Shown: positions 4,269-21,124, counted from the first letter of the stretch. The stretch: DNA of 32,000 nt from Edaphobacter aggregans (GCF_003945235.1 NZ_RSDW01000001.1:3930001-3962000), one strand, 5' to 3'. Program-made: numbers and translations. The notes: generated by a model from the letters alone, not told the origin.

Positions 4269-5396
4269 TTATTCCTGGACTACGGCTTTGACGAGGTTGC
4301 GGGGATTGTCTACGTCGATGTTTCGGCCTATGGCCATGAAGTAGGCGAGGAGTTGCAGGGGGACGACTTCGTAAAGGGGGGAGATGTACTCGGCGCACTG
4401 CGGGACGTGGATGGTGTGGCGGCTGAGTTTGGCGATTTCGGTGTCGCCTTCGCTGACGATGGAGATGATCTCGGCTCCCTGCTTGTTCATGTCGCGGACG
4501 AGGTTGACGGTTTTTTCGTAGCGGAGGATGGAGTCGGGTGCGTGGGGGTCGCGGGTAGCGAGGACGACGAGCGGGGTGTTGCGGTCGACGAGGGCGTTGG
4601 GGCCGTGCTTGAGCTCGCCGGTGGGGTAGCCTTCGGCTTGAATGTAGGCGGACTCTTTGAGCTTGAGGGCGCCTTCGCGAGCGATGGGGTAGTGGACGCC
4701 GCGGCCGAGGAAGAGGAAGGACTCGGCGGAGTGGAGGGAGTTGGAGAGCTCGGCGACCTGGGTCTCCCAGCGGGGGAGTGCGGCTTCCATGGCGGCGGGG
4801 ACGGCGTAGAGCTCATGAAGGTAGGACTCGACGACGGCGCGGGTCATGCGGCCACGGACCCGTGCGGCGTAGAGAGAGAGCAGCGAGATGACTACGAGCT
4901 GGGTGGTGAAGCTTTTGGTGGCGGGGACGGCTCGCTCGATGCCGGCGAGGGTGGGGAGAGAGCAGCCGGCGAGCTTCGCCATGGTGGAGTTGGGCTTGTT
5001 GGTGATGGCGATGGTGGAGCTGCCGCGTGCGGTGGCCTCGCGGAGGGCTTCGGAGGTGTCGGCGGTTTCGCCGGATTGGGAGATGACGAGGAAGCAAGGG
5101 TTCTTGAGGGTTTGGGTGGAGCGGTAGATGTACTCGCTGGCGTATTCGACGTCGACGGCGATGCCTGCAAGATCTTCGAAGAGGATTTCGCCGACCAGGC
5201 CGGCGTGGCGGCTGGAGCCGCTGGCGGAGATGAGGAGACTCTCGCGGCCTACGAGGGCTTGGCGGGCGGCGACGAAGGTTTCTTCGCGGAGGCTGTTGCC
5301 GTCGGCGTAGGCGGCGAGAGTCTCGGTGATGGCTTGCGGCTGCTCGAAGATCTCGCGGAGCATGGCGTGGGGGAAGATTTTGTCCTTGGGAAGCAT
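4269..5396 (-). CDS. double-SIS-domain sugar-phosphate isomerase/deaminase (isomerase half of GlmS; AgaS / NagB-II / FrlB-like)
   Basis: 375 aa with no glutaminase domain. SIS motifs are present (LLISASGSSRHAG, FLVISQSGETADT). The GlmS-like C-terminus reads DVDNPRNLVKAVVQE. Confidence 0.88.
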   Translation of the reverse strand: MLPKDKIFPHAMLREIFEQPQAITETLAAYADGNSLREETFVAARQALVGRESLLISASGSSRHAGLVGEILFEDLAGIAVDVEYASEYIYRSTQTLKNPCFLVISQSGETADTSEALREATARGSSTIAITNKPNSTMAKLAGCSLPTLAGIERAVPATKSFTTQLVVISLLSLYAARVRGRMTRAVVESYLHELYAVPAAMEAALPRWETQVAELSNSLHSAESFLFLGRGVHYPIAREGALKLKESAYIQAEGYPTGELKHGPNALVDRNTPLVVLATRDPHAPDSILRYEKTVNLVRDMNKQGAEIISIVSEGDTEIAKLSRHTIHVPQCAEYISPLYEVVPLQLLAYFMAIGRNIDVDNPRNLVKAVVQE

Positions 5397-5450
5397 TGCT
5401 TGGTTTTACCTCATGGATCAGTCTAGTGATAAGTTTGGACGCCAAAAAGA

Positions 5451-5476
5451 ATGGTGCGGGAAAAATCCCGCACCAT
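5451..5476 (-). terminator. intrinsic terminator between the PIG-L and SIS genes
   Basis: Perfect 10-bp stem ATGGTGCGGG / CCCGCACCAT with a 6-nt loop. On the minus strand it is followed by TCTTTTTGG. Confidence 0.75.
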
Positions 5477-5497
5477 GGCTAACACTTTGCGCTTTCG

Positions 5498-8335
5498 CTA
5501 GTGGTTCGAAGGGGTTGTGGTGAGGCCGGGATTTTTGCCCATGCTGAGGAGATTCGCCATGATGCGGTAGGAGCCGGGGACGCCGTCGGGCATCTGGCGG
5601 AAGAAGGCGTAGGCCAAGTAGACGTAAGCACCCTTGCCGTAGCGGGTGTAGAGGAGACCACCCTTCTGTGGGTCCTGGCCTGCGTCGTGCATCTCGGTGA
5701 GGGCGACGTAGTGTGGGTCCCAGGTACGCATGAAGCCGTGGCCGCGCTCTTCGACCCAGTTGTCGAAGTCGGCAGTGGTGATTTTGTTAGGCCAGTTGAA
5801 GACGGGATCTTTGGGATCAAGGAGACTGACCTTGTTGTCTTCTTCGATGACCTTCTCGGGGTCGCCGGAGAGGCTGAGTGGGTAGGGGCCGTAGTTGTGG
5901 TCGAACTCCTGGGTCTGGTACTGGACGATGACGGTGCCGCCGCCTTTTGCGTATTCGAGGAGACGATTGTTGAAGGTCTTCAGCTCGGGACGGGCAGCGT
6001 AGGCGCGGATGCCGAGGACGATGGCATCGTATTGGGAGAGGTCGCCGGTGGCGATGTCCTGTGCGGAGAGGAAGATTGGGTGGATGCCCATGTCTTCGAG
6101 CGACATGGCGACGTCATCGCCGGTACCCATGATGTAGCCGACCTTAAGGTTGGGTGCCGTTTTTACGTCGACACCGCTGGTGCGGTAGGTGGCAGGACGA
6201 TAGTGCGGATAGGGGCGGAGGCCAGCGTAGCCGACGGTCTCGAAGCCCTGAGTGTATTTTTCGCCGTTGTATTCGGCCACGGCGGTGATGGTATAGGGCT
6301 TGGGCTGGACGGACTCGGGTTGAACGCGGAAGACGAGGTTCTGATCTTCGCCCTCACGTGTGGTGGCGAAGTCGGCTACGGCGGGAGTGGACATCCATCC
6401 CTTGGGGAGATCGAGGTGGACCTGGCCTTTGGCCGGGCCTTTGACGCTGCTGTGGAGGGTAACGTGTAGCTCGAACGTGGTGCTCATGAGCGGAACGATG
6501 CCGGCCAGTGGGGAGACGGTGAGCGAGATGGCCGGCGCTACTAGGAGGGGTTCGAGGACGGGGCCATCGCCGTTCATGCGGTGGATGGTCTGGACGACTC
6601 CGGTGAGCTTGATATTGACGCCCTGATACGCGACTGTGGCCTCGGCCAGGAGAGGGTAGGGCCGATTGGGAAGGTTGAGGTACCGGAGATCGCTGATGTC
6701 GTAGTAGGACTGTTCGAGATTGGGACGGCTGAAGTAGGGCTTGGTCAGCTCAGCGTCTTTAGGGACGGTGATTGCGATCAATTGATCGCGGGAGTCGCTG
6801 GGGGCCATCGCTCCGGTGATGGAATCTTTGGGTGTCATGATCCAGCCGGGTCCGGCTTCGGATTTGACCTGAACATCGGTGAGTGAGACGGGCTCGCTAC
6901 CCTGGTTGGCGATGTGGACGGAGACGTTGAAGGTCTGGCCGGGGATGACGTTCTGCGAGGTTGGTGTTTGTATGGACATGTCACCGAAGGGGCCGGAGCG
7001 CTGAGGGCCCGCACCGTCGGCGGTGTTTGCAAGGAATGAGAGGCCGAGGGATTGCTTCAAGGCTTCGTTGAACTGGGCCTGCTTGATCTGGAGCTCATGC
7101 GCCATGTTGTAGCGAGATTCGGCGGGGAGGTTGCTCTTGTTTACTTCGTCGAGGAGGGCGTTGGTCTGGGCGAGGCCTTTGGCGAGGGTCGGTGCAATGG
7201 TGGAGGGGGTGGCGGCGTTGAAGTCCTTGATGGCGGACTCGACGGTCGCGTTGAGTGCGTTCAGTTTTTCGCGCCAGGGTGCTTGCTGAGCTTCAGGTGC
7301 ATAGGATGCGATGCCGGCCAGGGTGATGTCGATGCCGTCGAAGAAGCTGGATTCATGCGGGGAGGTCGAGATGCGCGCGGCGTAGAGGTGATATGGGCTG
7401 GAGGTGGAACGAGGGAGGGGGATGGCTATGCCACCGTTCTGAGACTTCTGCTCGTTGAGGCCCTCGCGGGAGATCTGCATGTAGGAGGAGCCGAGGAGAG
7501 GATTGTAGGTTCCGGTGGGGATCTCGACGTTGGTGGAGGGGACGCCTTCGATCCAGGTGTCGTCGGCGTAATTGCGGAAGCGGACGGGTTCCCAGTGGCC
7601 GGTGGCGTAGTCGTAGACGCCTTTGTCGGAGATGCGGGCGAAGGGGACGCGGCCGTAGACCTTGAGCGGTGTCCAGGGGAGGAGGCCAGCTTTGATCTGG
7701 TCAGGGAACATGTTGGGATCGCCGGCGGCCTTGTAGGCTTCTTGCGCCATGGCGCCAGAGACTTGATGGTGACCGTGGCCATCGGAGACGTTGCCGACGA
7801 AGGTCGAGGTGATGACGAGTGGGCGCTGCATGCGGATGACTCGGACGACGTCGTAGAGGACGCGATCTTTGCCCCAGGTCTTGAGGGCTTCTTCAATGGT
7901 CTTGGAGAAGCCAAAGTCAGCGACGCGAGTGAAGTACTGATGGACGCCGTAGTAATTGCCGGCGGCGAGCAGTTCCTGGGTGCGGAGGGTTCCGAGCTCG
8001 TCCCAGTAGTCGGAGGTCATGTCGTTTTGACCGCCTTCGCCGCGGTTGAGAGTGAGAAGGGTCGTATCGACGCCCTGGCCGCGGCCTTCATAGGTGAGCA
8101 TGCCGCCGTCTTCGTCGTCAGGGTGCGCGACGACCATGGCGAGGCTGGCGCGGGTGTGAAGCTTCTTAAGAGACTGGGAGAGAGCGGCGGAGCCTCGATC
8201 GATCGGGAGCGGACGAGCAAAAGCCGATTGATAGTGAGAGGATTCCGGCTGCTGGGCGACGACGTTCGTTCCGTTGAGGCAGAGAGAAGATATGAGAAGA
8301 CCCAGAGTGGTGCCGCGGAACAATTCAGATCTCAT
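5498..8335 (-). CDS. exported PIG-L/LmbE-family deacetylase with a large C-terminal extension (945 aa)
   Basis: Signal peptide (LGLLISSLCLNGTNVVAQQ). PIG-L motifs VVAHPDDEDGG and DGHGHHQ are present. The C-terminal region resembles a ThuA / class-I-amidotransferase fold (YDAIVLGIRAYA...GGGTVIVQYQ). AGGAG lies 9 nt upstream of the ATG at 8335. Confidence 0.88.
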   Translation of the reverse strand: MRSELFRGTTLGLLISSLCLNGTNVVAQQPESSHYQSAFARPLPIDRGSAALSQSLKKLHTRASLAMVVAHPDDEDGGMLTYEGRGQGVDTTLLTLNRGEGGQNDMTSDYWDELGTLRTQELLAAGNYYGVHQYFTRVADFGFSKTIEEALKTWGKDRVLYDVVRVIRMQRPLVITSTFVGNVSDGHGHHQVSGAMAQEAYKAAGDPNMFPDQIKAGLLPWTPLKVYGRVPFARISDKGVYDYATGHWEPVRFRNYADDTWIEGVPSTNVEIPTGTYNPLLGSSYMQISREGLNEQKSQNGGIAIPLPRSTSSPYHLYAARISTSPHESSFFDGIDITLAGIASYAPEAQQAPWREKLNALNATVESAIKDFNAATPSTIAPTLAKGLAQTNALLDEVNKSNLPAESRYNMAHELQIKQAQFNEALKQSLGLSFLANTADGAGPQRSGPFGDMSIQTPTSQNVIPGQTFNVSVHIANQGSEPVSLTDVQVKSEAGPGWIMTPKDSITGAMAPSDSRDQLIAITVPKDAELTKPYFSRPNLEQSYYDISDLRYLNLPNRPYPLLAEATVAYQGVNIKLTGVVQTIHRMNGDGPVLEPLLVAPAISLTVSPLAGIVPLMSTTFELHVTLHSSVKGPAKGQVHLDLPKGWMSTPAVADFATTREGEDQNLVFRVQPESVQPKPYTITAVAEYNGEKYTQGFETVGYAGLRPYPHYRPATYRTSGVDVKTAPNLKVGYIMGTGDDVAMSLEDMGIHPIFLSAQDIATGDLSQYDAIVLGIRAYAARPELKTFNNRLLEYAKGGGTVIVQYQTQEFDHNYGPYPLSLSGDPEKVIEEDNKVSLLDPKDPVFNWPNKITTADFDNWVEERGHGFMRTWDPHYVALTEMHDAGQDPQKGGLLYTRYGKGAYVYLAYAFFRQMPDGVPGSYRIMANLLSMGKNPGLTTTPSNH

Positions 8336-8404
8336 GGTGCGAAGCTCCTGAGGGATTACAGAGGTGTAAAAAGTCGACGATGGTAATGGATATCATGAGG
8401 TGAA

Positions 8405-8420
8405 AAACTTTGTAAAGTTT
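8405..8420. promoter_or_regulatory. perfect palindrome AAACTTTGTAAAGTTT in the divergent PIG-L / ROK control region (candidate operator)
   Basis: 7-bp arms AAACTTT and AAAGTTT with a 2-bp centre, in an AT-rich 95-bp divergent intergenic region. A related CTTTGTCAAAG lies at 9790-9800. Confidence 0.45.
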
Positions 8421-8451
8421 ATTTACATATTTGGGGTATCATCGTTGTCGA

Positions 8452-9705
8452 ATGAACACCGTCGAAAAAATGCGTCTGCCTCATCTCTCTACCGTACAGT
8501 ATCCCCCAGAAATGGAGACAGGGCCTTCGCGACCGGCGCATCTGCGTCAGGTGAATGCGCGGGGATTGCTGCGGTTGCTTCGTGAACACAATCCATGTTC
8601 GAAGGCGGACCTGGTGCGGTTGTCGGGGTTGAGCGCGCCAACTGTGTCGAGCGCTGTCGCGCATCTTGAATCGCTGGGGCTTATTGAGAATTTGGGGGAA
8701 GGAGAATCGAGCGGTGGGCGACCGCCCGGGTTGCTGCGTTTTCACGCGGAACATGGATATGTTGCCGGCGCGGATATTGGCGGGACGCGGCTGCGGATGA
8801 TACTTGCGGATTTGAACGGCAAGGTGCTGACGCAGTGGTCGACCCTACTGACCGAGAAGCAGCGGACCCCGAAGGCTGTGTGCTCTCTGATGCACGAGGG
8901 GCTGAAGGTGATGTGCCAGGAAGAGAGTACGTCGCTCAAGAAAGTACTGCATCTGACGGCGGGCGCACCGGGGATTACGAATGTTGATTCGGGAATTGTT
9001 CTTTCTGCGCCGAACCTTAAGGACTGGGATGACGTACCTCTGCGTACGATGATCGAAAAAGAGATGGGTATTCCGGCGCTGGTAGAGAATGACACGAACC
9101 TTGCTGCGGTGGGCGAGCACTGGCGTGGGTCGGCCACGGGAGTAGAGGATTTTATTTTTGTTGCGTTGGGAACAGGTGTGGGCGCGGGAATTTTTCTGCG
9201 CGGACGCTTGCATCATGGGGCGAACTGGAGCGCGGGGGAGATTGGCTACACGCGCGCGGAGGGATGTTCGCGACATCCGTTGCAGGTGCATTCGCCTGGG
9301 CAACTGGAGCGGTCGATTGGGGGAGTGGGCATCGAGAAGGAGTGGATGCGGCTGCTCGGACGGAGCCGCCGGGCGAATGAATCGGCTCTGACGAAGCTGC
9401 GGGCATCGGAGATATTCGACCTTGCTGTGGATGGCGACAGGGCCGCGGCTGAAGTTGTTCACTATGCTGCGCAGATTTTGGCTAACTGCATTGTTGACCT
9501 GGCGCTGGCGCTCGATCCAGAGGTAGTCATTCTAGGAGGCGGCGTGGGCGCTCACGCCGAGCTTTGTAGGGCCACGGAGAAATTACTGCAACAGAATGAA
9601 TTTGCCTGTCCACGCGTTCGGTCCAGCTCTCTCGGTACGCAGGCGCAACTCCACGGGGCAATTTCGCTTAGTCTCTCGGCCACGGAAAACAGGTTGCTGG
9701 CTTAG
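8452..9705 (+). CDS. ROK-family transcriptional regulator (NagC/Mlc-like; N-terminal wHTH plus ROK sugar-kinase fold)
   Basis: HTH region: NARGLLRLLREHNPCSKADLVRLSGLSAPTVSSAVAHLESLGLI. ROK core: ADIGGTRLR, ENDTNLAAVGE, LGTGVGAGI, SAGEIGY. The start is uncertain: TTG 8431, ATG 8452, 8470 or 8512, and none has a clear SD. Confidence 0.85.
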   Translation: MNTVEKMRLPHLSTVQYPPEMETGPSRPAHLRQVNARGLLRLLREHNPCSKADLVRLSGLSAPTVSSAVAHLESLGLIENLGEGESSGGRPPGLLRFHAEHGYVAGADIGGTRLRMILADLNGKVLTQWSTLLTEKQRTPKAVCSLMHEGLKVMCQEESTSLKKVLHLTAGAPGITNVDSGIVLSAPNLKDWDDVPLRTMIEKEMGIPALVENDTNLAAVGEHWRGSATGVEDFIFVALGTGVGAGIFLRGRLHHGANWSAGEIGYTRAEGCSRHPLQVHSPGQLERSIGGVGIEKEWMRLLGRSRRANESALTKLRASEIFDLAVDGDRAAAEVVHYAAQILANCIVDLALALDPEVVILGGGVGAHAELCRATEKLLQQNEFACPRVRSSSLGTQAQLHGAISLSLSATENRLLA

Positions 9706-9789
9706 ATTCAATAAAGAAATCATATTGACAAGCACAAGGTTGTTGCCCTAGTGTTAGGGCCACACTTCCTAAATAGATTTTACTAAGTT

Positions 9790-9800
9790 CTTTGTCAAAG
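9790..9800. promoter_or_regulatory. palindrome CTTTGTCAAAG upstream of the TonB receptor gene (possible second operator)
   Basis: 5-bp arms around a central T, located 53 nt upstream of the ATG at 9853. It shares CTTTGT..AAAG with the 8405-8420 palindrome. Confidence 0.3.
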
Positions 9801-9852
9801 CGATTTAAAGAAACGCTGATTTCGCTTCACCGTTGAAGTTTCAGGAGGCTAC

Positions 9853-12837
9853 ATGTCGATTCTTCGCATTGCCCAAACAGCTCTCTTCGGCGCCGCTCTT
9901 GCAGCGGGGCTTGTAGTTTCCAGCGCGAGTTTGCCCGCGTGGGCGCAGTCGCAGTCGATCAACGGCACGATTCGCGGACTGGTCTCGGACTCCACCGGGG
10001 CGCCGATTGCAGGGGCGACGGTGACAGTGAAGAATCTGGATACCGGATATACGCGTATCGTAACCTCTGCAGGGGATGGTCTTTACATCGCTCCCGATCT
10101 GCCGGTCGGAACATATTCGGTGAGTGCGCAGGCGGCTGGCTTTGCTCTGCTTACACAGACTGGTATCCACCTTGCTGCAGGAAACGAAACCGTTATCGAC
10201 CAGGTGCTCAAGGCGGGATCCGTGGCCACCGTGGTTGAGGTGACCTCCGATGCGCCGATTCTCGAACCAGCGCGGTTCACGCTGGGCCGCACGATTTCGC
10301 CGGAAGAGACGCAGAACCTTCCGCTGACGTCGCGCAATCCGTATAACTTCATCCTGTTTCAGCCGGGGGTGAGCGGCCATCCTAATCCGGAGAATGGGAT
10401 TCCGCGCACGGTGAATACGAACGGCCTGGTGGACCGCATCAGCTATCAACTGGACGGCATGGTGGATACGGAGACGGATCGTTATGGTCTGCGTTTGTTC
10501 GCTATTTCCGACTCGTATGTAAGCGAAGTGCAGACGATTGCCAATAGCGCTCCTGCAGAGTTTGGCAATACTGCTGGTGTTACGTTCAACGTGATTACAC
10601 CGACAGGGACCAATCACTATCACGGACTGGTGCAGTACATCTGGCGGCCAAAGGCGGCGAGCTCCTGCCCGATTCTGCAAAACTGCGTTGCAGGTACGAC
10701 TGGCTATGCTCCTAAGCCCGATTTGCATGTGGATGACTATGTGGGGCGCATCGGTGGACCGGTAAAGAGGGACAAACTATTTTTCTTCGCTGCCTACGAA
10801 AAGTTGAAGCGCGCCAATCCTCAGGCGATCACGATTACGCCAGCTAATCAAGCTACGTTGATCGGCTACGGGATCAATGCAGCTCTCTTCAATCCTGCGC
10901 CAAGCGTGCAGCGGGCGCAGTGGCTGGATGTACGTGGTGACTGGACCATCAACACGAAGAACCAGGCCTTTGTGCGGTACAACTATTTCCGCAATAACTA
11001 TCCGTTCAACACAAACGTCGGCGGTTTGTATGCTCAGGACGCGTCATCGGACTTTCAGGATCGGGCTCATATCATCGGAGCACAACTGATTACGACCTTC
11101 ACTCCGAACATTCTGAACGAGTTTCGCGGCTCGTGGCCCTACCGCAATGAACACCATGTTGCGGGCCCAATTACGGGACCTGGGCCAATGATCACGATCA
11201 CCGGAGTCGCCAACTTCGGCGGCACAAATGCAGCTGCTGACAAGTTCCAGGAGAAGATTCCGTCGTTCAACGACAACGTGACCTGGATCAAAGGTGCGCA
11301 CACGATGAAGTTCGGTGTCGGCCTTCAGAAGAACCTGGACACACAACTGCAAGATGTTTATGTGCAGTACACGTTTGCCTCCATTGCACAGTGGCAGAGT
11401 GCGAAGAACGGTACGACACCGCACGTTTACAGCAATGTGAAGGCGAGCATCGGACAACCTGGCGCGGCTTACCATTCGGTCTTCTTCAATCTGTTTGCGC
11501 AGGATACGTGGCAGGTGAAGAAGAACTTACTGCTCTCCTATGGCCTTCGCTATGACCAGTACCGCGCCCCTACACCCCCAGCGGGCGAGCCCTTTGTCTA
11601 CACGCAGGGTTTCCGCACTCCGCTTGGGAATTTTGCGCCGCGGTTCGGTGTTTCGTATCAGCCGAATCCGACGACAGTTGTTCGTTTGAATGCTGGGCTC
11701 TTCTATGAAGCGACACCGACAAACACGTGGTACAACCCGCTGTACAACAATGGCGCGGCGGGAAGTGGTTCTTTCATCGCGACCGTGACGGGTGCCTCGT
11801 CGGAGGCGGCTGCGACAAGCTGCCAGCCAGCCTTCCCGAACACTCCTCAACAGGTTCCGGCAAGCTGCCTTGGAACACAGAGCATCTACGCCCTGACTCC
11901 GAGGTTCAAGAACGAGTATGTATGGAACGTCAATGCACAGGTGCAGCAGCAGCTCACGAAGAGTGACTCGCTGACTCTTGGATACATCATGACCAATGGG
12001 CGCAATATGCAGTTCCTGCGGAATATGAACCTCATTAATCCGGTTGGCACTCTGCTTGACGGACGTCCTGTTTTTCAGACAGCAGTGAATGCGAACACGC
12101 GTCTGTTTCCGCAGTTCAACAACATTACGCTGATCGACGTTGGCTCGAACTCTTCGTACAACGCGCTGACAGCGACCTATGAGCATCGGATGTCGCTGGA
12201 TTGGACGATGAGCGCGTCTTACACGTGGTCGCACTCGATCACTAACACGCCGGAGGCCAATTCGTATGAGTTCTCGACGCCGGTGCAGGACACGACCAAT
12301 CCTAACGGGGACCGCGGCAATAGCGGTGTCAACCGTCCGCAATCGCTGACGGTGAGCACGGTGTATGCGCCGACGGCACACTTCGAGAATCGAATCGCGA
12401 ACGTGCTTGCCAACGACAATAATCTTGCGCTGCTAGGCAATTTCTCGAGCGGCGATCAACAGATCATGACTGTCAGTGCGGCGCTCAACAACGATGCGAT
12501 CGCCACGAGTCGGCCACTGTTCATTGGACGAAACACCTTGCGCGCCCCGAACATCGCTCAAGTAGATGCCCGCTACACACGTGGCTTTGGCACCTATTGG
12601 GAGCGCGTGAAGCCTCAGTTGCTGATCGAGGCCAACAACCTGTTCAACCGTTCCAACGTGACCTCGATCAATGGAACGGCGCAAGTGGTGCCTCTCAACT
12701 ACGTTGGGCCATCGAATGGCAATCCGGCCACCTTCAACCGGCTGGCGGGCACGATTACCTCCCAGCCGACGCTGGCGCCGACGAGTTCGGTTCTAGAGGC
12801 ACGAATTCTTCAGTTCGGTCTGAAGGTCGAGTTTTAG
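9853..12837 (+). CDS. TonB-dependent outer-membrane receptor with an N-terminal carboxypeptidase-regulatory-like domain (994 aa)
   Basis: AGGAGG lies at 9843-9848. Signal peptide ends ...LPAWAQS. CarbopepD_reg-like segment: GTIRGLVSDSTGAPIAGATVTVKNLDTGYTRIVTSAGDGLYIAPDLPVGTYSV. A long beta-barrel follows, ending LQFGLKVEF with a terminal aromatic residue. Confidence 0.92.
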   Translation: MSILRIAQTALFGAALAAGLVVSSASLPAWAQSQSINGTIRGLVSDSTGAPIAGATVTVKNLDTGYTRIVTSAGDGLYIAPDLPVGTYSVSAQAAGFALLTQTGIHLAAGNETVIDQVLKAGSVATVVEVTSDAPILEPARFTLGRTISPEETQNLPLTSRNPYNFILFQPGVSGHPNPENGIPRTVNTNGLVDRISYQLDGMVDTETDRYGLRLFAISDSYVSEVQTIANSAPAEFGNTAGVTFNVITPTGTNHYHGLVQYIWRPKAASSCPILQNCVAGTTGYAPKPDLHVDDYVGRIGGPVKRDKLFFFAAYEKLKRANPQAITITPANQATLIGYGINAALFNPAPSVQRAQWLDVRGDWTINTKNQAFVRYNYFRNNYPFNTNVGGLYAQDASSDFQDRAHIIGAQLITTFTPNILNEFRGSWPYRNEHHVAGPITGPGPMITITGVANFGGTNAAADKFQEKIPSFNDNVTWIKGAHTMKFGVGLQKNLDTQLQDVYVQYTFASIAQWQSAKNGTTPHVYSNVKASIGQPGAAYHSVFFNLFAQDTWQVKKNLLLSYGLRYDQYRAPTPPAGEPFVYTQGFRTPLGNFAPRFGVSYQPNPTTVVRLNAGLFYEATPTNTWYNPLYNNGAAGSGSFIATVTGASSEAAATSCQPAFPNTPQQVPASCLGTQSIYALTPRFKNEYVWNVNAQVQQQLTKSDSLTLGYIMTNGRNMQFLRNMNLINPVGTLLDGRPVFQTAVNANTRLFPQFNNITLIDVGSNSSYNALTATYEHRMSLDWTMSASYTWSHSITNTPEANSYEFSTPVQDTTNPNGDRGNSGVNRPQSLTVSTVYAPTAHFENRIANVLANDNNLALLGNFSSGDQQIMTVSAALNNDAIATSRPLFIGRNTLRAPNIAQVDARYTRGFGTYWERVKPQLLIEANNLFNRSNVTSINGTAQVVPLNYVGPSNGNPATFNRLAGTITSQPTLAPTSSVLEARILQFGLKVEF

Positions 12838-12856
12838 ACTCATACTGAAGGAAGGT

Positions 12857-14365
12857 ATGCCAAATTTACCGATTAAGGGCAAATCGGTGTTTCCAGCACC
12901 GATCTACCGCGACACCGTCTTAGTTCAGGTCTTTGCGGATGCCAAACGATATTTTCTAGAGCCGCTGCTGGAGATCGAGTATGCGCATACGCTGATGCTG
13001 GCGCGACAGGGCATCATGCCTGAAGCTGAAGCGGCCCTGTGCCTTCGCGCGCTGGACCAGCTTGATATCGATGAGGTTCGTTCGGCGCAGTACGACGGGA
13101 CATTTGAGGATCTGTTCTTCTACCTGGAGAAGAAGATTGCCGCAGTGTGCGGCGAAGAGGTTGCCGGCAAGATGCATACGGCTCGCAGCCGCAATGATAT
13201 TGATCTGACGATGTATCGCATGGTTCTGCGCGAGTGGTTGACACAGACACTGGTGGCGACGTTGCATCTTCGCCGCAGGCTTGTGGAGTTGGCATGGGAG
13301 CATCGTGCTTCGCTGATGCCGGCATATACGCATAATCAGCCTGCGCAACCGACTACGCTGGGCCACTACCTGATGGCGTATATCGAGATTCTGGAGCGCG
13401 ATGCTGAACGGATTCAAGCCGCTTATGCTCGGGTGAATCGCAATCCGCTGGGAGCCTGCGCGATTACGACGACCGGATTTCCTATAGATCGGCACTACAC
13501 AGAGAGGCTGCTGGGTTTTGCGGGACTGCAGGTCAATTCGTATGGGGCGATTGCAGCGGTGGATTATCTCGCCGAGAGCTGTTTCGTATTGGCTGGCACG
13601 ATGCTTAGCCTGGGGCGGTTTGCGCAGGATCTTCTGTTGTGGAGCACTGTAGAGTTCGGCTACTTGCGGCTTAGTGATGCTTATGTACAGATCAGTAGCA
13701 TCATGCCGCAGAAACGCAACCCGGTGCCTCTGGAGCATGTGCGGATTCTTGCCAGCCGCGCTTTGATGCAGGCACAGAGTGTTGTTGGATGTTTGCATAA
13801 CACTCCGTTTGCCGATATGAATGATGCCGAAGACGAGTTGCAGCCGCTGGTGTATACGGCATTTGAAGATGGCGAGCGAAGTCTTCGATTGCTAGCTGGG
13901 GTTTTGGATGAAGTGAAGTTCCATACTGAGCGCATGGCTGTGGCCGCAGATGAGAACTTTCTTCCGGTTACTGAGTTGGCCGATACGCTGGTGCGGTCGA
14001 CGGGCATCAGCTTCCATGCGGCGCATGCAGTTGTGAGCGCCGCAGTGAAGGAGCTTGAGGGCAACTATGACGCGGAGGCGATAGCGGAGATTATTGTGCG
14101 TGAGCTTCCGTCGATTGTTGAAGGGACTCGGATGATTTCTCGTGAGACGATCAGGACTTCGCTGAGTGCGCAGAACTTTGTTGCGGTTCGGCAGGTTGCG
14201 GGTGGACCGGCGAGTGAGGCGCTAGATCCGGAGATTCTGCGGGCCAGGGAGCAACTCCTGATTGATGAACGGTGGCTGTTTGATGAGGAGAATCATCGCA
14301 GGAATGCGCGAACGATGATGAGAGAAGAGAGCGATGCTCTGCTGCGGCGGGTCGATGGACGTTAG
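12857..14365 (+). CDS. argininosuccinate-lyase-like enzyme (aspartase/fumarase superfamily), divergent N-terminus
   Basis: All three superfamily motifs are present: HTARSRNDIDLT, YTHNQPAQPTTLGH and SSIMPQKRNPVPLE. The start is 19 nt after the receptor stop, with a GAAGGAAGG SD. The canonical ArgH N-terminal WGGRF motif is absent. Confidence 0.9.
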   Translation: MPNLPIKGKSVFPAPIYRDTVLVQVFADAKRYFLEPLLEIEYAHTLMLARQGIMPEAEAALCLRALDQLDIDEVRSAQYDGTFEDLFFYLEKKIAAVCGEEVAGKMHTARSRNDIDLTMYRMVLREWLTQTLVATLHLRRRLVELAWEHRASLMPAYTHNQPAQPTTLGHYLMAYIEILERDAERIQAAYARVNRNPLGACAITTTGFPIDRHYTERLLGFAGLQVNSYGAIAAVDYLAESCFVLAGTMLSLGRFAQDLLLWSTVEFGYLRLSDAYVQISSIMPQKRNPVPLEHVRILASRALMQAQSVVGCLHNTPFADMNDAEDELQPLVYTAFEDGERSLRLLAGVLDEVKFHTERMAVAADENFLPVTELADTLVRSTGISFHAAHAVVSAAVKELEGNYDAEAIAEIIVRELPSIVEGTRMISRETIRTSLSAQNFVAVRQVAGGPASEALDPEILRAREQLLIDERWLFDEENHRRNARTMMREESDALLRRVDGR

Positions 14366-15788
14366 CCGGCTTCCGTTGACTTCAACTTCTCCGCCTAAGC
14401 CGCCAGAGTTGCAGCGCGGGCTTTCGACGCTCTCGGCGCTGGGGTTGAATGTTATCGGCATGGTGGGTATAGGGCCATTTGTCACTCTGCCGCTGATTGT
14501 CGCAGCTATGGGTGGACCGCAGGCGATGCTGGGTTGGGTATTGGGGGCGGCCTTGTCGTTGTGCGACGGGATGGTCTGGAGCGAGTTGGGGACAACGTAT
14601 CCGGAAGCTGGGGGTTCGTATGCTTATCTGAAACATCTTTATGGCGAGCGGAGATGGGGACGAGTGTTCTCCTTTCTTTACGCATGGCAGCTCTTGTTCA
14701 GTTCGCCGTTGTCGATTGCTTCGGGTTGCATCGGGTTCTCCCAGTACGTGTCGTTCTTTCTTCCGAATGCGGCCACGCCTTTGTTTTCGACGAGGTTTGT
14801 GGGGGTTCCGATTGTCGTTAGCGGACAGACACTGATCGCGATGAGCGCGTGCGCGCTTGCGATAGCGGTGCTGTATCGGAGCATTGTTCAGATCGATAAG
14901 ATTGTTCGCTGGTTGGGCGTTGTGGTTGTCCTAACGCTTGTGTTTGTTATTTTCGCGGGTTTCACTCACTTTCATCCGAGTATGGCTTTCGATTTCCCAG
15001 CGGGGGCCTTTCATATCGATAGCGCGTTTTTCATCGGGCTGGGTGCTGGACTGCTGGTTGCAACCTATGACTACGGTGGTTATTACGGCGTTTGCTTCGT
15101 GGGCGCGGAGGTTCGCGATCCGCAGCGGACGATTCCGCGTGCGGTGTTGGGTTCGGTTGTTATTGTCGGCACACTGTACCTGCTGATGAATGTCAGCGTG
15201 CTGGGCGTGCTGCCGTGGCGTGAACTGATGCAGGATAACGGCAGCCATGCGCGAATGTTTGTCATCGCTGAGTTCATGGAGCGGTTATATGGGCATGGAG
15301 CCGCGGGTGTGATCGTGGTGTTGATCGCGGTGGCGGCGCTTTGTTCGGTGTTCGCTTTGTTGCTTGGGCAGTCGCGGATTCCGTTTGCGGCGGCTCGGGA
15401 TGGCAACTTTCCTGCGTGGTTTGGTGCGATTCATCCCAAGCTTCGGATGCCGCACCATTCGCTGCTGACGCTGGGGGCGATGACGCTGATCTGTTGCATC
15501 TTTCGATTGCAGGAGGTGATTACCGCCCTTGTGGTGATTCGCATCCTGTTCCAGTTTCTGCTGCAGGGAGTGGCGGTCCTGCTACCCAAACATCGACGGG
15601 AGCGGAGGGTGCGCGGATACCGCATGCCGCTCTATCCGATTCCTGCGTTGCTGGCGCTGAGCGGGTTTCTGTTCATTCTGTTCTCGCGGCCGAACTTTCA
15701 GCGAGAGATACGGACCGCGGGGGTGATTCTGCTGGCTGGATTGATGGTTTACCTGATTCGGTATCTGCGCCTACGGAGTGCGGTGTGA
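14334..15788 (+). CDS. APC-superfamily amino-acid/polyamine-type permease (about 12 TM)
   Basis: Sequence pattern LGLNVIGMVGIGPFVTLP...GGSYAYL. It overlaps the lyase-like stop (14363-14365). An alternative start at ATG 14355 would give an 11-nt overlap. Confidence 0.9.
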   Translation: MLCCGGSMDVSRLPLTSTSPPKPPELQRGLSTLSALGLNVIGMVGIGPFVTLPLIVAAMGGPQAMLGWVLGAALSLCDGMVWSELGTTYPEAGGSYAYLKHLYGERRWGRVFSFLYAWQLLFSSPLSIASGCIGFSQYVSFFLPNAATPLFSTRFVGVPIVVSGQTLIAMSACALAIAVLYRSIVQIDKIVRWLGVVVVLTLVFVIFAGFTHFHPSMAFDFPAGAFHIDSAFFIGLGAGLLVATYDYGGYYGVCFVGAEVRDPQRTIPRAVLGSVVIVGTLYLLMNVSVLGVLPWRELMQDNGSHARMFVIAEFMERLYGHGAAGVIVVLIAVAALCSVFALLLGQSRIPFAAARDGNFPAWFGAIHPKLRMPHHSLLTLGAMTLICCIFRLQEVITALVVIRILFQFLLQGVAVLLPKHRRERRVRGYRMPLYPIPALLALSGFLFILFSRPNFQREIRTAGVILLAGLMVYLIRYLRLRSAV

Positions 15789-15841
15789 AGGTACCCCTCC
15801 CCCCTACTTTGCCGCGTAAAGTCTAGCAGGGAAATACTTTA

Positions 15842-15872
15842 AGTCCGGACTTGCTGTTTGGAAGTCCGGACT
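15842..15872. terminator. 11-bp hairpin formed by two copies of the palindrome AGTCCGGACT
   Basis: AGTCCGGACTT (15842-15852) pairs with AAGTCCGGACT (15862-15872), with a 9-nt loop. It lies in a convergent intergenic region just upstream of the canonical terminator. Confidence 0.5.
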
Positions 15873-15880
15873 CAAAAAGG

Positions 15881-15910
15881 AAAAGGCCCCGATTGTTTTC
15901 GGGGCCTTTT
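15881..15910. terminator. bidirectional intrinsic terminator
   Basis: AAAAGGCCCCG (15881-15891) pairs with CGGGGCCTTTT (15900-15910), with an 8-nt loop. An A-tract lies on the 5' side and a T-tract on the 3' side. Confidence 0.85.
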
Positions 15911-16010
15911 GCTCTATTTCTAGTGTAACAAGCTGAGGAAGCTGATTCGGCACCTCATAATCTATTCGTTTTGAATGAGATAAGCCCGTTTTGGGATTGA
16001 CAGATCTTGG

Positions 16011-16346
16011 CTATTTGATGAGGTCGCGGTAGTCTTCGCGGGTCGGGGTGAAGACGTCGAGGACTTCGGAGGGTTCGAGGGCGGAGGCCTGGTGTTCGAC
16101 ATTGCCGTCGACGATGAAGCTGTCTCCGGCGTGGGCGTCGAAGACTTTTCCGTCAACGTCGACGCGGATAGCTCCGCTGATGACGTAGACGAGCTGATGA
16201 TGGGGGTGGCTGTGGCGGGCTCCTACCCAGCCTTCCTCGAAGTAGTGACGGACGAGCATCAACTGGTCGGTGTTGGCGAGGACCTGGCGGCGCATGCCGG
16301 GCTCGGGGGTGAAGGTTTTAGGGTCTTGGTTTTTTACGAAGGTCAT
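16011..16346 (-). CDS. cupin-domain protein (111 aa)
   Basis: Cupin motifs GARHSHPHHQLVYVISG and GDSFIVDGNVEHQA. GGAG lies 6 nt upstream of the ATG. Confidence 0.85.
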   Translation of the reverse strand: MTFVKNQDPKTFTPEPGMRRQVLANTDQLMLVRHYFEEGWVGARHSHPHHQLVYVISGAIRVDVDGKVFDAHAGDSFIVDGNVEHQASALEPSEVLDVFTPTREDYRDLIK

Positions 16347-17824: not shown

Positions 17825-20800
17825 TTAGTTGTGAGGGTAGTCGACCCTTATGGTTAGGATTTCGTAGGGGCTGATGGGGGCTGTGACTTTGTTGTTGGAC
17901 ACCGTTAGGGGGGAGCCTTGTGGCTTCTCCATGAGGTTGGTTTCGGTGGCGGAGGTGGCTCCGGTGGGGACGGTGAAGGTTACATCGGATTGTTTGCCGG
18001 CCCACTCGAAGACGCGGAAGATGAGGCCGTTGTCGTCCTCAGCTTTTTTGATTGCGGTGAGGATTACGTTCTCCGGTGTGACGGAGGCGTAGGAGTGCTC
18101 GAGGGGTAGGGTGCCGGTGTGGGAGCCGACCTGTGCGGCGCGCAGTTCGTAGTTGTATTGGTAGCCGCGGCGTGCGGTGAGGGCCTGTTTCCATGTTCCG
18201 GCGTGCGGGTAGAGGGCGTAGCTGAAGTGCTGGTGGCCGCGGTCGGCTTCGGGGTCGGGCCAGGTGGCGGAGCGCAGGAGGGTTAGGCGCAGGACGTTGC
18301 CTGCGGCGTCGTAGCCGTATTTGGCTTCGTTGAGGAGCGAGAAGCCGTGCTGGGCGTCGCCGAGGTCGGCCCAGCGGAGAGCGGGGACTTCGAACTTGGC
18401 TTGCTCCCAGGTGTTATTGCGGGTAGTGGTGCGCTCGATGTTGCCGTAGGGGATGTCGTAGGTGGCCATGGGGCCAGTGGCGGCGAGCGGGAAGGCTGCC
18501 TTGAGGAGGACGTGGGTCTCGTGCCAGTCGATGTCGTTGATGACGTCGACGGTGTCGGTGTTGGCGTAGAGCTGGAGGTCCTGAACGAACTTCGAGGACT
18601 GCCAGGTGCGGGTGACGCGGATGACGGCACGCATGGGGCCGCTCTCGACGAGCTTGACCGAGTCAACGTTGCTGATGGGGGTCATGTGGTCGAGAGTGCC
18701 GGGGTCGATGTTCCAGGCGTCGTATTCCTTGGGGAGATCGTGGAAGGTCTGGAGCTGGTTGCCGCAGGCTCCGCTGGCGAGGGACTCGAAGTTGGACTTC
18801 TTGTCGTAGAGGCTGGTGATGCAGCCGGTGGAGGAGTCTACGACTACCTTGAGGAAGGCGTTCTCCATCGTGGTGCCGCTGGCTTTGAGGTCCGTCGCAA
18901 AGGGCTTGGTTCCTGCAGTGACGTGGAGTACCTGATAGCCCATGGAGGGGACGTCTTTTGCGGCGATCAGGATTTTGTAGGTGTTGGTCTTGGGGTCGCT
19001 CTCGGTGACGAATGAGGGCAGGACGTTGTTGTGGGCGTCGAGGACTGAGACGCCGTTGGTGGATGCGGTGGGAAGCTGGACTGTCGCGGTGGTGATGCCG
19101 GTGTGGCTCCAGGCGAGCGGGTTGAAGACGAGGACGGGTACTTCGCCTGCGGCTTTGGTGTTGATGCCTGCGGCGAGGGTGTTGAGGGCGTTGGTTGAGA
19201 TTTCGTTGGTGGCCCAGCGGACCTGGTCGAATTCGGCCTGTGCTTCTTTGTAGATGATGCCGATGCCGGAGCCGGCGGCGAGGTCGTGGAAGCCGTTGAA
19301 GGCAATCTTCTTCCAGGCGTCGGTGAGTTCGGCGTGGGGGTAGGGCTTGCCGTCGAGCCATGCGAGAGAGGCTAACTTTTCGGCGTTGATGGTGCGCTCT
19401 TCGGATTCGCGCATGTTGCGCTTGTGCTGGGCCTGGGTGGTCATGACTCCGCGGTGGTACTCGAAGTACATCTCATCCTTCCAGGTGGGGATGGCGATTT
19501 TGCCGGGGTCGGGCGTGGGGAAGGTGTAGCCCTTGGCGATGGAGGTGTAGTTCCAGACGGGCGAGTTGGGGGAGAGGTTTTGCTCGGAGTTGGTGAAGAA
19601 GGATTGGGCGACGCCGAACTGGATGTTGGGCATGATCTTGCCGGGCTGGGCCCAGTGATTGCCCTCGTCGAGGATGGCGCGGGTGGGGCCGCCGCCGTGG
19701 TCGCCGATGCCGTAGAGGTCCATCATCTTTTCCATGCCGGGTGCGCGTTGGCGGGCCACGGCGAGGTCGGCGGAGAGGCGGACGGGGTTGAGGTTATTGT
19801 TGGCGTAGTCGTGCGGGAAGTAGGTGAGGACTTTGCTGCCGTCGGGAGACTGCCACCAGAAGAGCTTGAAGGGGAGCTGGTTGGTGTCGTTCCAGGTCAT
19901 CTTCTGGGTGACGAAGTAGTCCATGCCAGAGCGTTTGTAGATCTGGGGGAGCTGCCAGTTGTAGCCGAAGGAGTCGGGGTTCCAGCCGATGCGGACGTCG
20001 ACGCCGTACTGGTCTTTGAAGAAGCGCTTGCCGATGAGGAGGGAGCGGACCTGGGATTCGCCATCGGGCATGTTGAGATCGGGCTCGACCCACATGCCGC
20101 CGACGATCTCCCATCGGCCTTCCTTGATGCGCTTTTTGATCTCTTCGTTGATGGCTGGGTATTTTTGCGCGATCCAGTCGTTGTAGGCGGCGGCGGATTG
20201 GGTGTAGGTGTAGTCGGGGTACTCGTTCATGAGCTGGAGCGCGGTGGAGAAGGTGCGCTTGACTACGTCGACGGTTTCGGTAACGGGCCAGAGCCATGCG
20301 GCGTCGATGTGGGAGTTGCCGGTGAGATGGAATGTGGCTTGTTGCAGAACGGGCTTGATGGGCTCGAGCTTTTGGCGGGAGGCGGTGAGGGAGGCGTCGA
20401 ATTTTGATTGGTCGGCGGCTTCGAGGGCGGCGAGATCAACGGTGGTGATGGATTGGTTGAGGGTGGCTAGGTCCTGCGTGGGGTTCTTGGAGAGCGAGGG
20501 CAGGAGGGCGGCGCTGGAGAGGAACTCGGTGCGAAGGTCGGAGGGGTTGGGGCGGCCGGAGGCGAAGTCGATCTTCATGGTCGCGCGGTCGAAGGTCTTG
20601 GTGTCGACGGTGTGGAGGAGTTTTACGGCGATGAGGACCTTGTCGCCGGGCTTGGCCTGGTCGAAGAGGACGATGGGTTCGAGGTCGTCACCGAGGGCTA
20701 CGCGGCGGCCGTTGAAGTAGATGATCTGCGGCATGGGGCCGTTGGCGTTGGCACGGAATTGGAACCAGATGCGGGCTCCGGTGAGGTCGTAGCCATTGAG

Positions 20801-21124
20801 ATTTTTGGGGACTTCGACGAGGCGACGGAACCAGACGGCGTCGTTGGGGGCGTGGCTGCGGGGCTTGACGATGGGCCAGGAGGAGTCGTCGAGGTTCGGG
20901 TCTTCGCCGTGGGCGAGGTCGCCTACGTGGGAACGCCACTCGTCGGCGGGGAGGTTGTCGAGGGTGCCGAGGCGCTCGACGACTTTTTGGGAGTTGGCGG
21001 GGAGGGTTGCGATGATGTCGGCGATCTCTTTGGGGGATTGCGCGTGGGCGGGGATCAGGGCGGCGGTGACGAAGGCGGTGAGGAGGATCGTGGTGATACG
21101 GCGCAGAGAGGCGATGACAGTCAA
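17825..21124 (-). CDS. exported GH38-family alpha-mannosidase (Ams1/TM1851-type architecture, 1099 aa)
   Basis: TTG start with AGGAG (21131-21135) and a 6-nt spacer. Signal peptide TILLTAFVTAALIPAHAQS. GH38 core: GNSHIDAAWLWP...GRWEIVGGMWVEPDLNMPDGES...GWNPDSFGY. Confidence 0.92.
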   Translation of the reverse strand: MTVIASLRRITTILLTAFVTAALIPAHAQSPKEIADIIATLPANSQKVVERLGTLDNLPADEWRSHVGDLAHGEDPNLDDSSWPIVKPRSHAPNDAVWFRRLVEVPKNLNGYDLTGARIWFQFRANANGPMPQIIYFNGRRVALGDDLEPIVLFDQAKPGDKVLIAVKLLHTVDTKTFDRATMKIDFASGRPNPSDLRTEFLSSAALLPSLSKNPTQDLATLNQSITTVDLAALEAADQSKFDASLTASRQKLEPIKPVLQQATFHLTGNSHIDAAWLWPVTETVDVVKRTFSTALQLMNEYPDYTYTQSAAAYNDWIAQKYPAINEEIKKRIKEGRWEIVGGMWVEPDLNMPDGESQVRSLLIGKRFFKDQYGVDVRIGWNPDSFGYNWQLPQIYKRSGMDYFVTQKMTWNDTNQLPFKLFWWQSPDGSKVLTYFPHDYANNNLNPVRLSADLAVARQRAPGMEKMMDLYGIGDHGGGPTRAILDEGNHWAQPGKIMPNIQFGVAQSFFTNSEQNLSPNSPVWNYTSIAKGYTFPTPDPGKIAIPTWKDEMYFEYHRGVMTTQAQHKRNMRESEERTINAEKLASLAWLDGKPYPHAELTDAWKKIAFNGFHDLAAGSGIGIIYKEAQAEFDQVRWATNEISTNALNTLAAGINTKAAGEVPVLVFNPLAWSHTGITTATVQLPTASTNGVSVLDAHNNVLPSFVTESDPKTNTYKILIAAKDVPSMGYQVLHVTAGTKPFATDLKASGTTMENAFLKVVVDSSTGCITSLYDKKSNFESLASGACGNQLQTFHDLPKEYDAWNIDPGTLDHMTPISNVDSVKLVESGPMRAVIRVTRTWQSSKFVQDLQLYANTDTVDVINDIDWHETHVLLKAAFPLAATGPMATYDIPYGNIERTTTRNNTWEQAKFEVPALRWADLGDAQHGFSLLNEAKYGYDAAGNVLRLTLLRSATWPDPEADRGHQHFSYALYPHAGTWKQALTARRGYQYNYELRAAQVGSHTGTLPLEHSYASVTPENVILTAIKKAEDDNGLIFRVFEWAGKQSDVTFTVPTGATSATETNLMEKPQGSPLTVSNNKVTAPISPYEILTIRVDYPHN

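Follow-up and report, generated by a model that had tools for sequence, protein, structure and literature searches.

A fumarate-type lyase of the ArgH branch in a putative amino-sugar-conjugate uptake locus of Edaphobacter aggregans, with a possible link to bacillithiol

The described enzymes closest to the lyase considered here are argininosuccinate lyase (ArgH) and delta-crystallin (EC 4.3.2.1; T. thermophilus 2E9F, E. coli 1TJ7), with which it shares superfamily, motifs, and catalytic residues (best PDB match 234.6 bits). This ArgH-paralogue lyase of 502 amino acids (aa; Pfam Lyase_1 and ASL_C2), a member of the aspartase/fumarase superfamily, is encoded at 12857..14365 on the + strand of a 32,000-nucleotide stretch of Edaphobacter aggregans DNA (GCF_003945235.1 NZ_RSDW01000001.1:3930001-3962000; "the window" is this whole stretch), between the genes for a TonB-dependent receptor and an APC-superfamily permease. 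Unlike ArgH, it has no N-terminal WGGRF, shows PFADMNDAEDEL as its specificity block, has V after KRNP, has lost the Arg of NSxDxxSDRD, and ends in a C-terminal extension of about 40 residues; its gene is an accessory one in an importer and amino-sugar context, with the true argH elsewhere. Very probably, it is a fumarate-type lyase distinct from ArgH that belongs to a pathway for the uptake of an amino-sugar conjugate. Tentatively, and at a little under even confidence, we propose that the locus is an accessory uptake and breakdown system for a small, malyl-bearing N-acylated glucosamine conjugate, in which the lyase would split glucosaminyl-malate into glucosamine and fumarate.

A catabolic, non-ArgH lyase that releases fumarate from N-substituted aspartates has been described in Chelativorans sp. 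BNC1, the ethylenediaminedisuccinate (EDDS) lyase (PMC6973171). This 508-aa enzyme (6G3D-6G3I, 6RX8; 225-229 bits) has a C-terminal tail like that of the window lyase but differs in having Thr-Gln where the window lyase has Thr-His, in its D290 and Y320, which are not kept, presumably in belonging to a different clade, and in context, that of the window lyase being sugar-type. Another diverged ArgH-like member is XcbC of bacterial coenzyme M biosynthesis (NF052535), against which the window lyase scores 241.9 bits (cut-off 575); its substrate, phosphosulfolactate, and its context are unrelated to those of the window lyase. XcbC eliminates an oxygen-linked leaving group, phosphate, and would be a precedent for C-O cleavage.

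Two further described systems resemble the neighbours of the lyase. The deacylases BshB/Bca and MshB/Mca, which act on N-acetylglucosamine (GlcNAc)- or acyl-glucosamine-aglycone conjugates, have their PIG-L motifs in common with a secreted 945-aa PIG-L/LmbE-family protein, a putative deacetylase or amidase with extra middle and C-terminal domains (5498..8335, - strand; Pfam PIG-L and NPCBM_assoc). The window protein falls far under the cut-offs for these enzymes, and the genome has its own BshB1; being exported and about 700 residues longer, the window protein is not a biosynthetic BshB. The archaeal-type chitin route (Dac PIG-L deacetylase and GlmD SIS deaminase) and the NagB-II routes likewise pair a PIG-L protein with a subsequent GlmS-like SIS enzyme, which in the window stand under a NagC-type ROK regulator; unlike in these routes, the pair in the window is joined by a fumarate-type lyase and two transporters, the APC permease and the TonB receptor, while chitinase and glucosaminidase are missing.

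The lyase and housekeeping ArgH

Aligned with E. coli ArgH and with the genome's own ArgH, the lyase has all three superfamily motifs reported by an earlier, sequence-only reading of this DNA (TARSRNDIDLT, residues 108-118; YTHNQPAQPTT, 157-167; and SSIMPQKRNP, 280-289, continuing to LEH), and it retains the catalytic residues S280, K286, N288, T158/H159, and E293. What it lacks, as that reading had also noted, is the N-terminal W(G/S)GRF of both ArgH proteins, where a family-specific FPAPxY..TVL segment stands instead. The ArgH block PLAYNKD(L/M)QEDK is replaced, the Asp after KKNP is V290, and, taken together, V290, D320, E325, D326, and L328 stand where ArgH has D, Y, Q, E, and K. In the structural literature, the residues that hold the arginine moiety are Y323, Q328, K331, and D293 of delta-crystallin together with the N-terminal WGGRF/FNxS region.

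A canonical argH was found elsewhere in the genome (G000:C1:383469-384914), scoring 503.7 bits against TIGR00838. The window lyase reaches 347.5 bits, above the equivalog cut-off of 279.5 and 156 bits under the real ArgH, and PRK06705 scores it equally (344.7 bits), so that the TIGR00838 cut-off fails to separate the lyase clade. It is because the lyase exceeds this cut-off that public annotations name its orthologues argininosuccinate lyase. No arginine-biosynthesis genes were identified among the larger open reading frames of the window, in keeping with the earlier reading. By its sequence, the lyase belongs to the aspartase/fumarase superfamily, within the ArgH branch. That it is not the housekeeping enzyme, as the sequence-only reading claimed, is upheld by the canonical copy elsewhere, the patchy distribution of the paralogue, and the replaced arginine-binding positions. 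Because it departs from ArgH in specificity residues, gene context, and distribution, the name ArgH should not be given to it.

The paralogue is an accessory gene, present in 13 of 61 genomes of the genus (a tally that includes one unpublished genome, G129), 12 of 121 of the family, and 57 of the 401 sampled from the phylum. A sequence search against 1.8 billion representatives gave, among its best 150 matches, mainly proteins some 500 aa long. In a FastTree phylogeny of 138 sequences, rooted on two canonical ArgH sequences as the chosen outgroup and built without EDDS lyase or PRK06705 members, the window lyase falls in a 34-tip clade with Shimodaira-Hasegawa-like support of 0.98. The clade signature consists of VQxSSIMPQKRNPVxLEH, HNTPF(G/A)DxxDxEDxLQP, and an N-terminal FPxPxYxxTVL, and D320 is kept in 51 of the 53 tips of the wider clade. 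Two relatives of the clade are fusion proteins: P0209 (from L135; 657 aa) joins an Amidohydro_2 domain to a lyase, which suggests a hydrolase-then-lyase order within one protein, and P0192 (576 aa) joins a GntR-type helix-turn-helix domain to a lyase.

Partners of the lyase clade and the link to bacillithiol

We compared 80 lyase loci (30 from Acidobacteriaceae, some duplicated between collections, 41 from other Acidobacteriota, and 9 metagenomic or other representatives), identifying neighbouring genes by tblastn and Pfam matches without curated annotation. An inner-membrane importer (APC, SSF symporter, or ABC) lies within 10 kb of the lyase at 61 of these loci, a TonB-type receptor at 45, and a large PIG-L protein at 41; sugar kinases and glucosamine-6-phosphate (GlcN-6-P) deaminases also accompany the clade. 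The distant layouts L076, L077, L080, L084, and L128 have lyase homologues of 43-50% identity. Their gene orders are ROK kinase-lyase-APC in L076, lyase-ABC importer-990-aa PIG-L in L077, ROK regulator-ABC-PIG-L-lyase-NagK-type kinase in L080, and receptor-lyase-APC-PIG-L in L084, while L128/L129, on a repABC-type replicon, combines a ROK protein, a sugar ABC importer, the lyase, a PfkB kinase, and a NagB-II-like SIS protein. At L131, an Amidohydro_2 hydrolase adjoins the lyase. No glycosidase accompanies the lyase across the roughly 80 loci, which leaves the lyase as the sole candidate for freeing the sugar; in the paralogous locus L072, a GH4 glycosidase and kinases occupy its place. Most simply, a deacylase would act first, and the lyase would then free an amino sugar for phosphorylation and deamination.

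In the window, the PIG-L domain (PF02585, 60.1 bits) spans residues 67-200 of the secreted protein, which has a signal-peptide-like N-terminus and the metal motifs AHPDDED (in VVAHPDDEDGG) and HGHH; its best NCBIfam matches, all under cut-off, are Mca, MshB, and BshB1. Lyase-linked PIG-L proteins share at least 61% identity and form an orthologue group of their own, apart from a more common paralogue at about 50%. Next to it, a cytoplasmic double-SIS enzyme (4269..5396, - strand; two Pfam SIS domains) corresponds to a stand-alone GlmS isomerase domain: it lacks the glutaminase domain, matches PRK00331 (GlmS) with 370.5 bits over profile positions 248-599, and has GlmS isomerase domains as its best PDB matches, with 122 bits against NagB-II (cut-off 430), 97 against GlmD (cut-off 580), and only 30.5 against FrlB. 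It is a putative GlcN-6-P deaminase. The ROK-family regulator (8431..9705, + strand; Pfam ROK and MarR_2/HTH_24) has an N-terminal winged helix and is of the NagC/Mlc type (NagC 119 bits). Among the 30 Acidobacteriaceae loci, the SIS gene adjoins the PIG-L gene in 13, a ROK protein is present in 23, and the lyase has a receptor nearby in 28, immediately upstream of it at the mapped loci.

The PIG-L family is that of BshB/Bca, and malate is the only common aglycone known to us that is able to leave as fumarate; for these reasons, bacillithiol genes were looked for in the genome of the window, an Edaphobacter-type genome of 6.15 Mb in a single contig. This search preceded any knowledge of bsh-linked lyase loci, which turned up only afterwards. 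bshA, bshB1, and bshC were all found above cut-off, in agreement with gene-content predictions of bacillithiol synthesis in Acidobacteria (PMC6282198).

In at least four acidobacterial lineages, the lyase itself lies beside bshA, bshB, or bshC. At L081, bshB1, bshA, and the lyase are joined by 3-4-nucleotide junctions beside bshC, with all three bsh genes above NCBIfam cut-offs; L116 carries receptor-PIG-L-lyase-bshB-bshA beside bshC; L096 has PIG-L-lyase beside bshC; and at L132 the lyase is beside bshC. In family f31 (L133, L134), the string ROK-receptor-SSF-PIG-L-lyase is followed by bshC about 2 kb past its ROK end, and ten more genomes have a similar lyase-bshC spacing of 11-13 kb. In the phylum sample, where lyase-positive genomes span 16 GTDB families, bshC occurs in 56 of 57 lyase-positive and 172 of 344 lyase-negative Acidobacteriota genomes (a tally that includes unpublished genome G204). 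We treat this co-occurrence as supportive and not as statistical proof, because the genomes share ancestry. The repABC-type replicon that carries one clade member is presumably alphaproteobacterial and thus from a group presumably using glutathione. In the literature, we found no paper on bacillithiol breakdown or environmental recycling, on a glucosaminyl-malate lyase, or on this ArgH-paralogue clade.

Proposed pathway and competing explanations

Because the genes that recur with the lyase encode amino-sugar enzymes, joined in several lineages by bacillithiol genes, the bond cut may be a C-O bond, that of a malyl glycoside, and not a C-N bond. The most likely substrates would be bacillithiol, its conjugates, or the precursor GlcNAc-malate, the malate-type moiety being the 1,2-dicarboxyethyl group. 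In the pathway we propose, the TonB-dependent receptor would bring bacillithiol, its disulfide or conjugates, or GlcNAc-malate over the outer membrane, and the secreted PIG-L protein would strip the cysteinyl or acetyl group in the periplasm, leaving a free-amine glucosaminyl-malate that the APC permease would import as a zwitterion. S280 of the lyase would then take the malyl C3 proton, and beta-elimination with the glycosyl oxygen as leaving group would give fumarate and glucosamine. The free ammonium group of the glucosamine moiety would be well matched by a conserved acidic cluster (D320, D323, E325, and D326), and this would explain why deacylation comes before the lyase step. A kinase encoded elsewhere would form GlcN-6-P, the GlmS-type SIS enzyme would convert this to fructose-6-phosphate and ammonia, and the ROK protein would regulate both divergent operons. 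It is possible, though we would put it somewhat below even, that this is the first bacillithiol catabolic or salvage route, and that the ArgH-annotated clade is a C-O lyase on glucosaminyl-L-malate fed by TonB uptake and a secreted PIG-L protein.

Several points weigh against this proposal. The window encodes no sugar kinase, and the bsh genes of its genome are dispersed and unlinked to the locus. Adjacency to bsh genes is seen in a minority of loci only, and the nesting of the lyase in bshC-positive genomes is confounded by common descent. The nearest characterized relatives cut C-N bonds, XcbC being the one precedent for C-O cleavage in the ArgH branch. Where the lyase is joined to bshB-bshA (L081, L116), destruction of glucosaminyl-malate would set up futile cycling, and at those loci the enzyme may instead act in repair or biosynthesis. 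The uptake-and-cleavage idea of the sequence-only reading survives in its general form, fumarate-releasing cleavage still being the best general reading, while its operon boundaries and substrate class are not supported.

That all close characterized relatives, ArgH and EDDS lyase among them, cut C-N bonds speaks for a conventional C-N lyase, acting on an N-(1,2-dicarboxyethyl) amino sugar or a sugar-amine N-substituted aspartate such as a Heyns/Amadori adduct, and releasing fumarate and an amino sugar to be phosphorylated and deaminated; this would keep the chemistry of the sequence-only reading but give it a sugar as substrate. The recurring triad of lyase, sugar kinase, and GlcN-6-P deaminase would fit, the APC permease has a weak likeness to FrlA, and the pairing of kinase and SIS recalls the frl operon. 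We nevertheless consider this unlikely: it leaves unexplained both the recurrence of PIG-L, as the amine would already be substituted, and the adjacency to bshA, bshB, and bshC; the SIS enzyme matches GlmS/NagB-II much better than it does the FrlB deglycase (370.5 versus 30.5 bits); and we know of no such natural compound, although no search for one was made. Amadori catabolism of the frl/fra type, with fructosyl-aspartate as substrate, had been considered from the APC and SIS (and PfkB) pattern and was set aside, being weakened by the SIS scores and leaving the PIG-L and bsh links unexplained. An N-glycan (GlcNAc-Asn) substrate, considered from a GH38 mannosidase gene at 17825-21124, was also rejected: the adjacency is found only in Edaphobacter-type synteny and not in other genera, and the chemistry is mismatched to the lyase superfamily.

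An improbable alternative is that the enzyme is not catabolic and serves the bacillithiol pool, either as a C-S lyase undoing the succination of bacillithiol or cysteine by fumarate, a form of metabolite repair, or in the biosynthesis of an acceptor acid or bacillithiol variant. Its translational coupling to bshB1-bshA at L081, its place in the same string as bshB-bshA at L116, and its nesting in bshC-positive genomes would be accounted for, and thiol addition occurs in the superfamily, in XcbD (NCBIfam scores of the lyase are 241.9 bits for XcbC and 82 for XcbD). Such a role would not explain the importers at 61 of 80 loci, the sugar kinases, the GlcN-6-P deaminases, or the repABC-type replicon, and since most bshC-positive genomes have no lyase, the lyase is not needed for bacillithiol synthesis. 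The aminopolycarboxylate or metallophore substrate that the sequence-only reading had put forward now appears very unlikely; it would be EDDS-, aspergillomarasmine-, or opine-like and would enter as a chelate via the TonB receptor. TonB receptors often import chelates, the EDDS lyase structures 6g3d and 6rx8 score 225-229 bits against 235 for true ArgH, and the C-terminal extension of some 40 residues is common to both lyases. Against this, the EDDS lyase pocket residues D290 and Y320 (PMC6973171) are V290 and M321 in the window lyase, the regulator is of the sugar (ROK) type, the recurring partners are all amino-sugar enzymes, and no recurring metal-regulated or chelate-transport genes were seen at the loci compared. 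Least credible of all is a second genuine argininosuccinate lyase, an isozyme sitting in the locus by chance, to which the TIGR00838 score and the public label would point; it is contradicted by the 156-bit deficit, the absent WGGRF, the D, E, and L in place of Y, Q, and K and the V for D after KKNP, by conserved partners that are importers and sugar enzymes, and by its absence from about 80% of congeners, where an argH-type function would be expected everywhere.

Layout of the locus and implications

The physical layout reported by the sequence-only reading was reproduced, with open reading frames at the same coordinates, a 19-nucleotide gap, a stop/start overlap, and hairpins at the end. The gene for the Oar-like TonB-dependent outer-membrane receptor (9853..12837, + strand; Pfam CarboxypepD_reg, OMP_b-brl_4 with 327.6 bits, and a TonB barrel) closes with a TAG ending at 12837, and the 19-nucleotide spacer, with the ribosome-binding site GAAGGAAGG, leads to the lyase ATG at 12857. 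The lyase stop TAG (14363-14365) lies inside the frame of the APC-superfamily permease gene (14334..15788, + strand; AA_permease_2, 157 bits), which starts at ATG 14334, overlapping the lyase by 32 nucleotides, or at the in-frame ATG 14355, overlapping it by 11. The permease reaches no NCBIfam equivalog (FrlA 99.6 bits). Past its stop at 15788, two hairpins close the operon (15842..15910, + strand): the palindrome AGTCCGGACT occurs twice at about 15842-15873, and a second hairpin at 15881-15910 has a G+C-rich 12-bp stem and a T-tract. GC skew on the + strand of the window (1-32000) is very strong and persistent, at 0.15-0.36 over most 1-kb windows, the receptor gene (10-13 kb) being the one place where it is near 0. 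The palindrome CTTTGTCAAAG (9790-9800), upstream of the receptor gene, and related patterns were not found in 20 orthologous or related loci, nor was the palindrome at 8405-8420 between the ROK and PIG-L genes, a loose pattern being used; with its site not conserved in relatives, co-regulation through CTTTGTCAAAG is no more than a possibility.

The six genes for SIS, PIG-L, ROK, receptor, lyase, and APC recur together in about 20 Edaphobacter/Acidobacteriaceae loci. PIG-L and SIS are divergent from ROK in the window, and in other genera (L018, L021) the genes form one colinear string, ROK-receptor-lyase-APC-PIG-L(-SIS). In the closest relative (L070, genome G160), whose flanks are 86-96% identical, SIS-PIG-L faces APC: blastn aligns window 4269-8399 with L070 8297-12429 and window 14396-16346 with L070 12508-14450, so that about 78 bp replace the 6.0 kb of window 8400..14395 (+ strand), and ROK-receptor-lyase is a clean 6-kb indel block. 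The PIG-L and APC pair also occurs without the lyase in L071 and L072, as it does in L070. The APC permease is thus evolutionarily paired with PIG-L, and the receptor-lyase pair belongs to the ROK-receptor-lyase block. The three-gene operon of the sequence-only reading is accordingly real as a physical unit but composite, the functional unit also taking in ROK, PIG-L, and SIS. The receptor-lyase-permease linkage that it had asked to have compared is conserved in relatives, and a canonical argH lies elsewhere in the genome, so that neither an unconserved linkage nor a sole argH, which it had named as grounds for refutation, was seen.

Other arrangements of these genes were also seen. L072, in the same genome as the window (G000:C1:5851000-5870900), carries LacI, PfkB, receptor, PIG-L, APC, PfkB, and GH4 glycosidase genes, with an Oar-like receptor, a 950-aa PIG-L protein of 53% identity, and an APC permease of 43% identity as paralogues of those in the window; this locus may serve to take up and cleave another glucosaminide, such as a mycothiol-type glucosaminyl-inositol. 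At L007-L011 and L024-L037, the receptor slot holds one of two receptor types, either 73-80% or only 43-48% identical to that of the window, which looks like a cassette-like receptor swap at a fixed position, the other genes being about 75% identical to those of the window. In one Edaphobacter genome (L012, 5892-9077), ROK-receptor-lyase is followed by a 1061-aa DUF3857/transglutaminase-like/TPR protein, with no APC permease there.

In conclusion, we rate this as a putative catabolic locus built round a superfamily enzyme with a new specificity. If the lyase clade is counted as argH on the TIGR00838 cut-off, arginine biosynthesis will be predicted too often and a probable catabolic trait overlooked. 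Among bacterial thiols, bacillithiol and its derivatives are regarded as the most widespread (PMC6282198), and with the candidate enzyme and locus described here, a single substrate and a spectrophotometric assay of fumarate would be enough to test for bacillithiol breakdown. If the proposal is true, elimination of a glycosyl leaving group would be a reaction type new to the ArgH branch of the superfamily, and the lyase would offer a genetic marker for thiol or necromass scavenging by abundant soil Acidobacteria. These bacteria, together with plasmid-borne relatives in other phyla, would then be able to draw on the chief low-molecular-weight thiol of Firmicutes and of many further bacteria.

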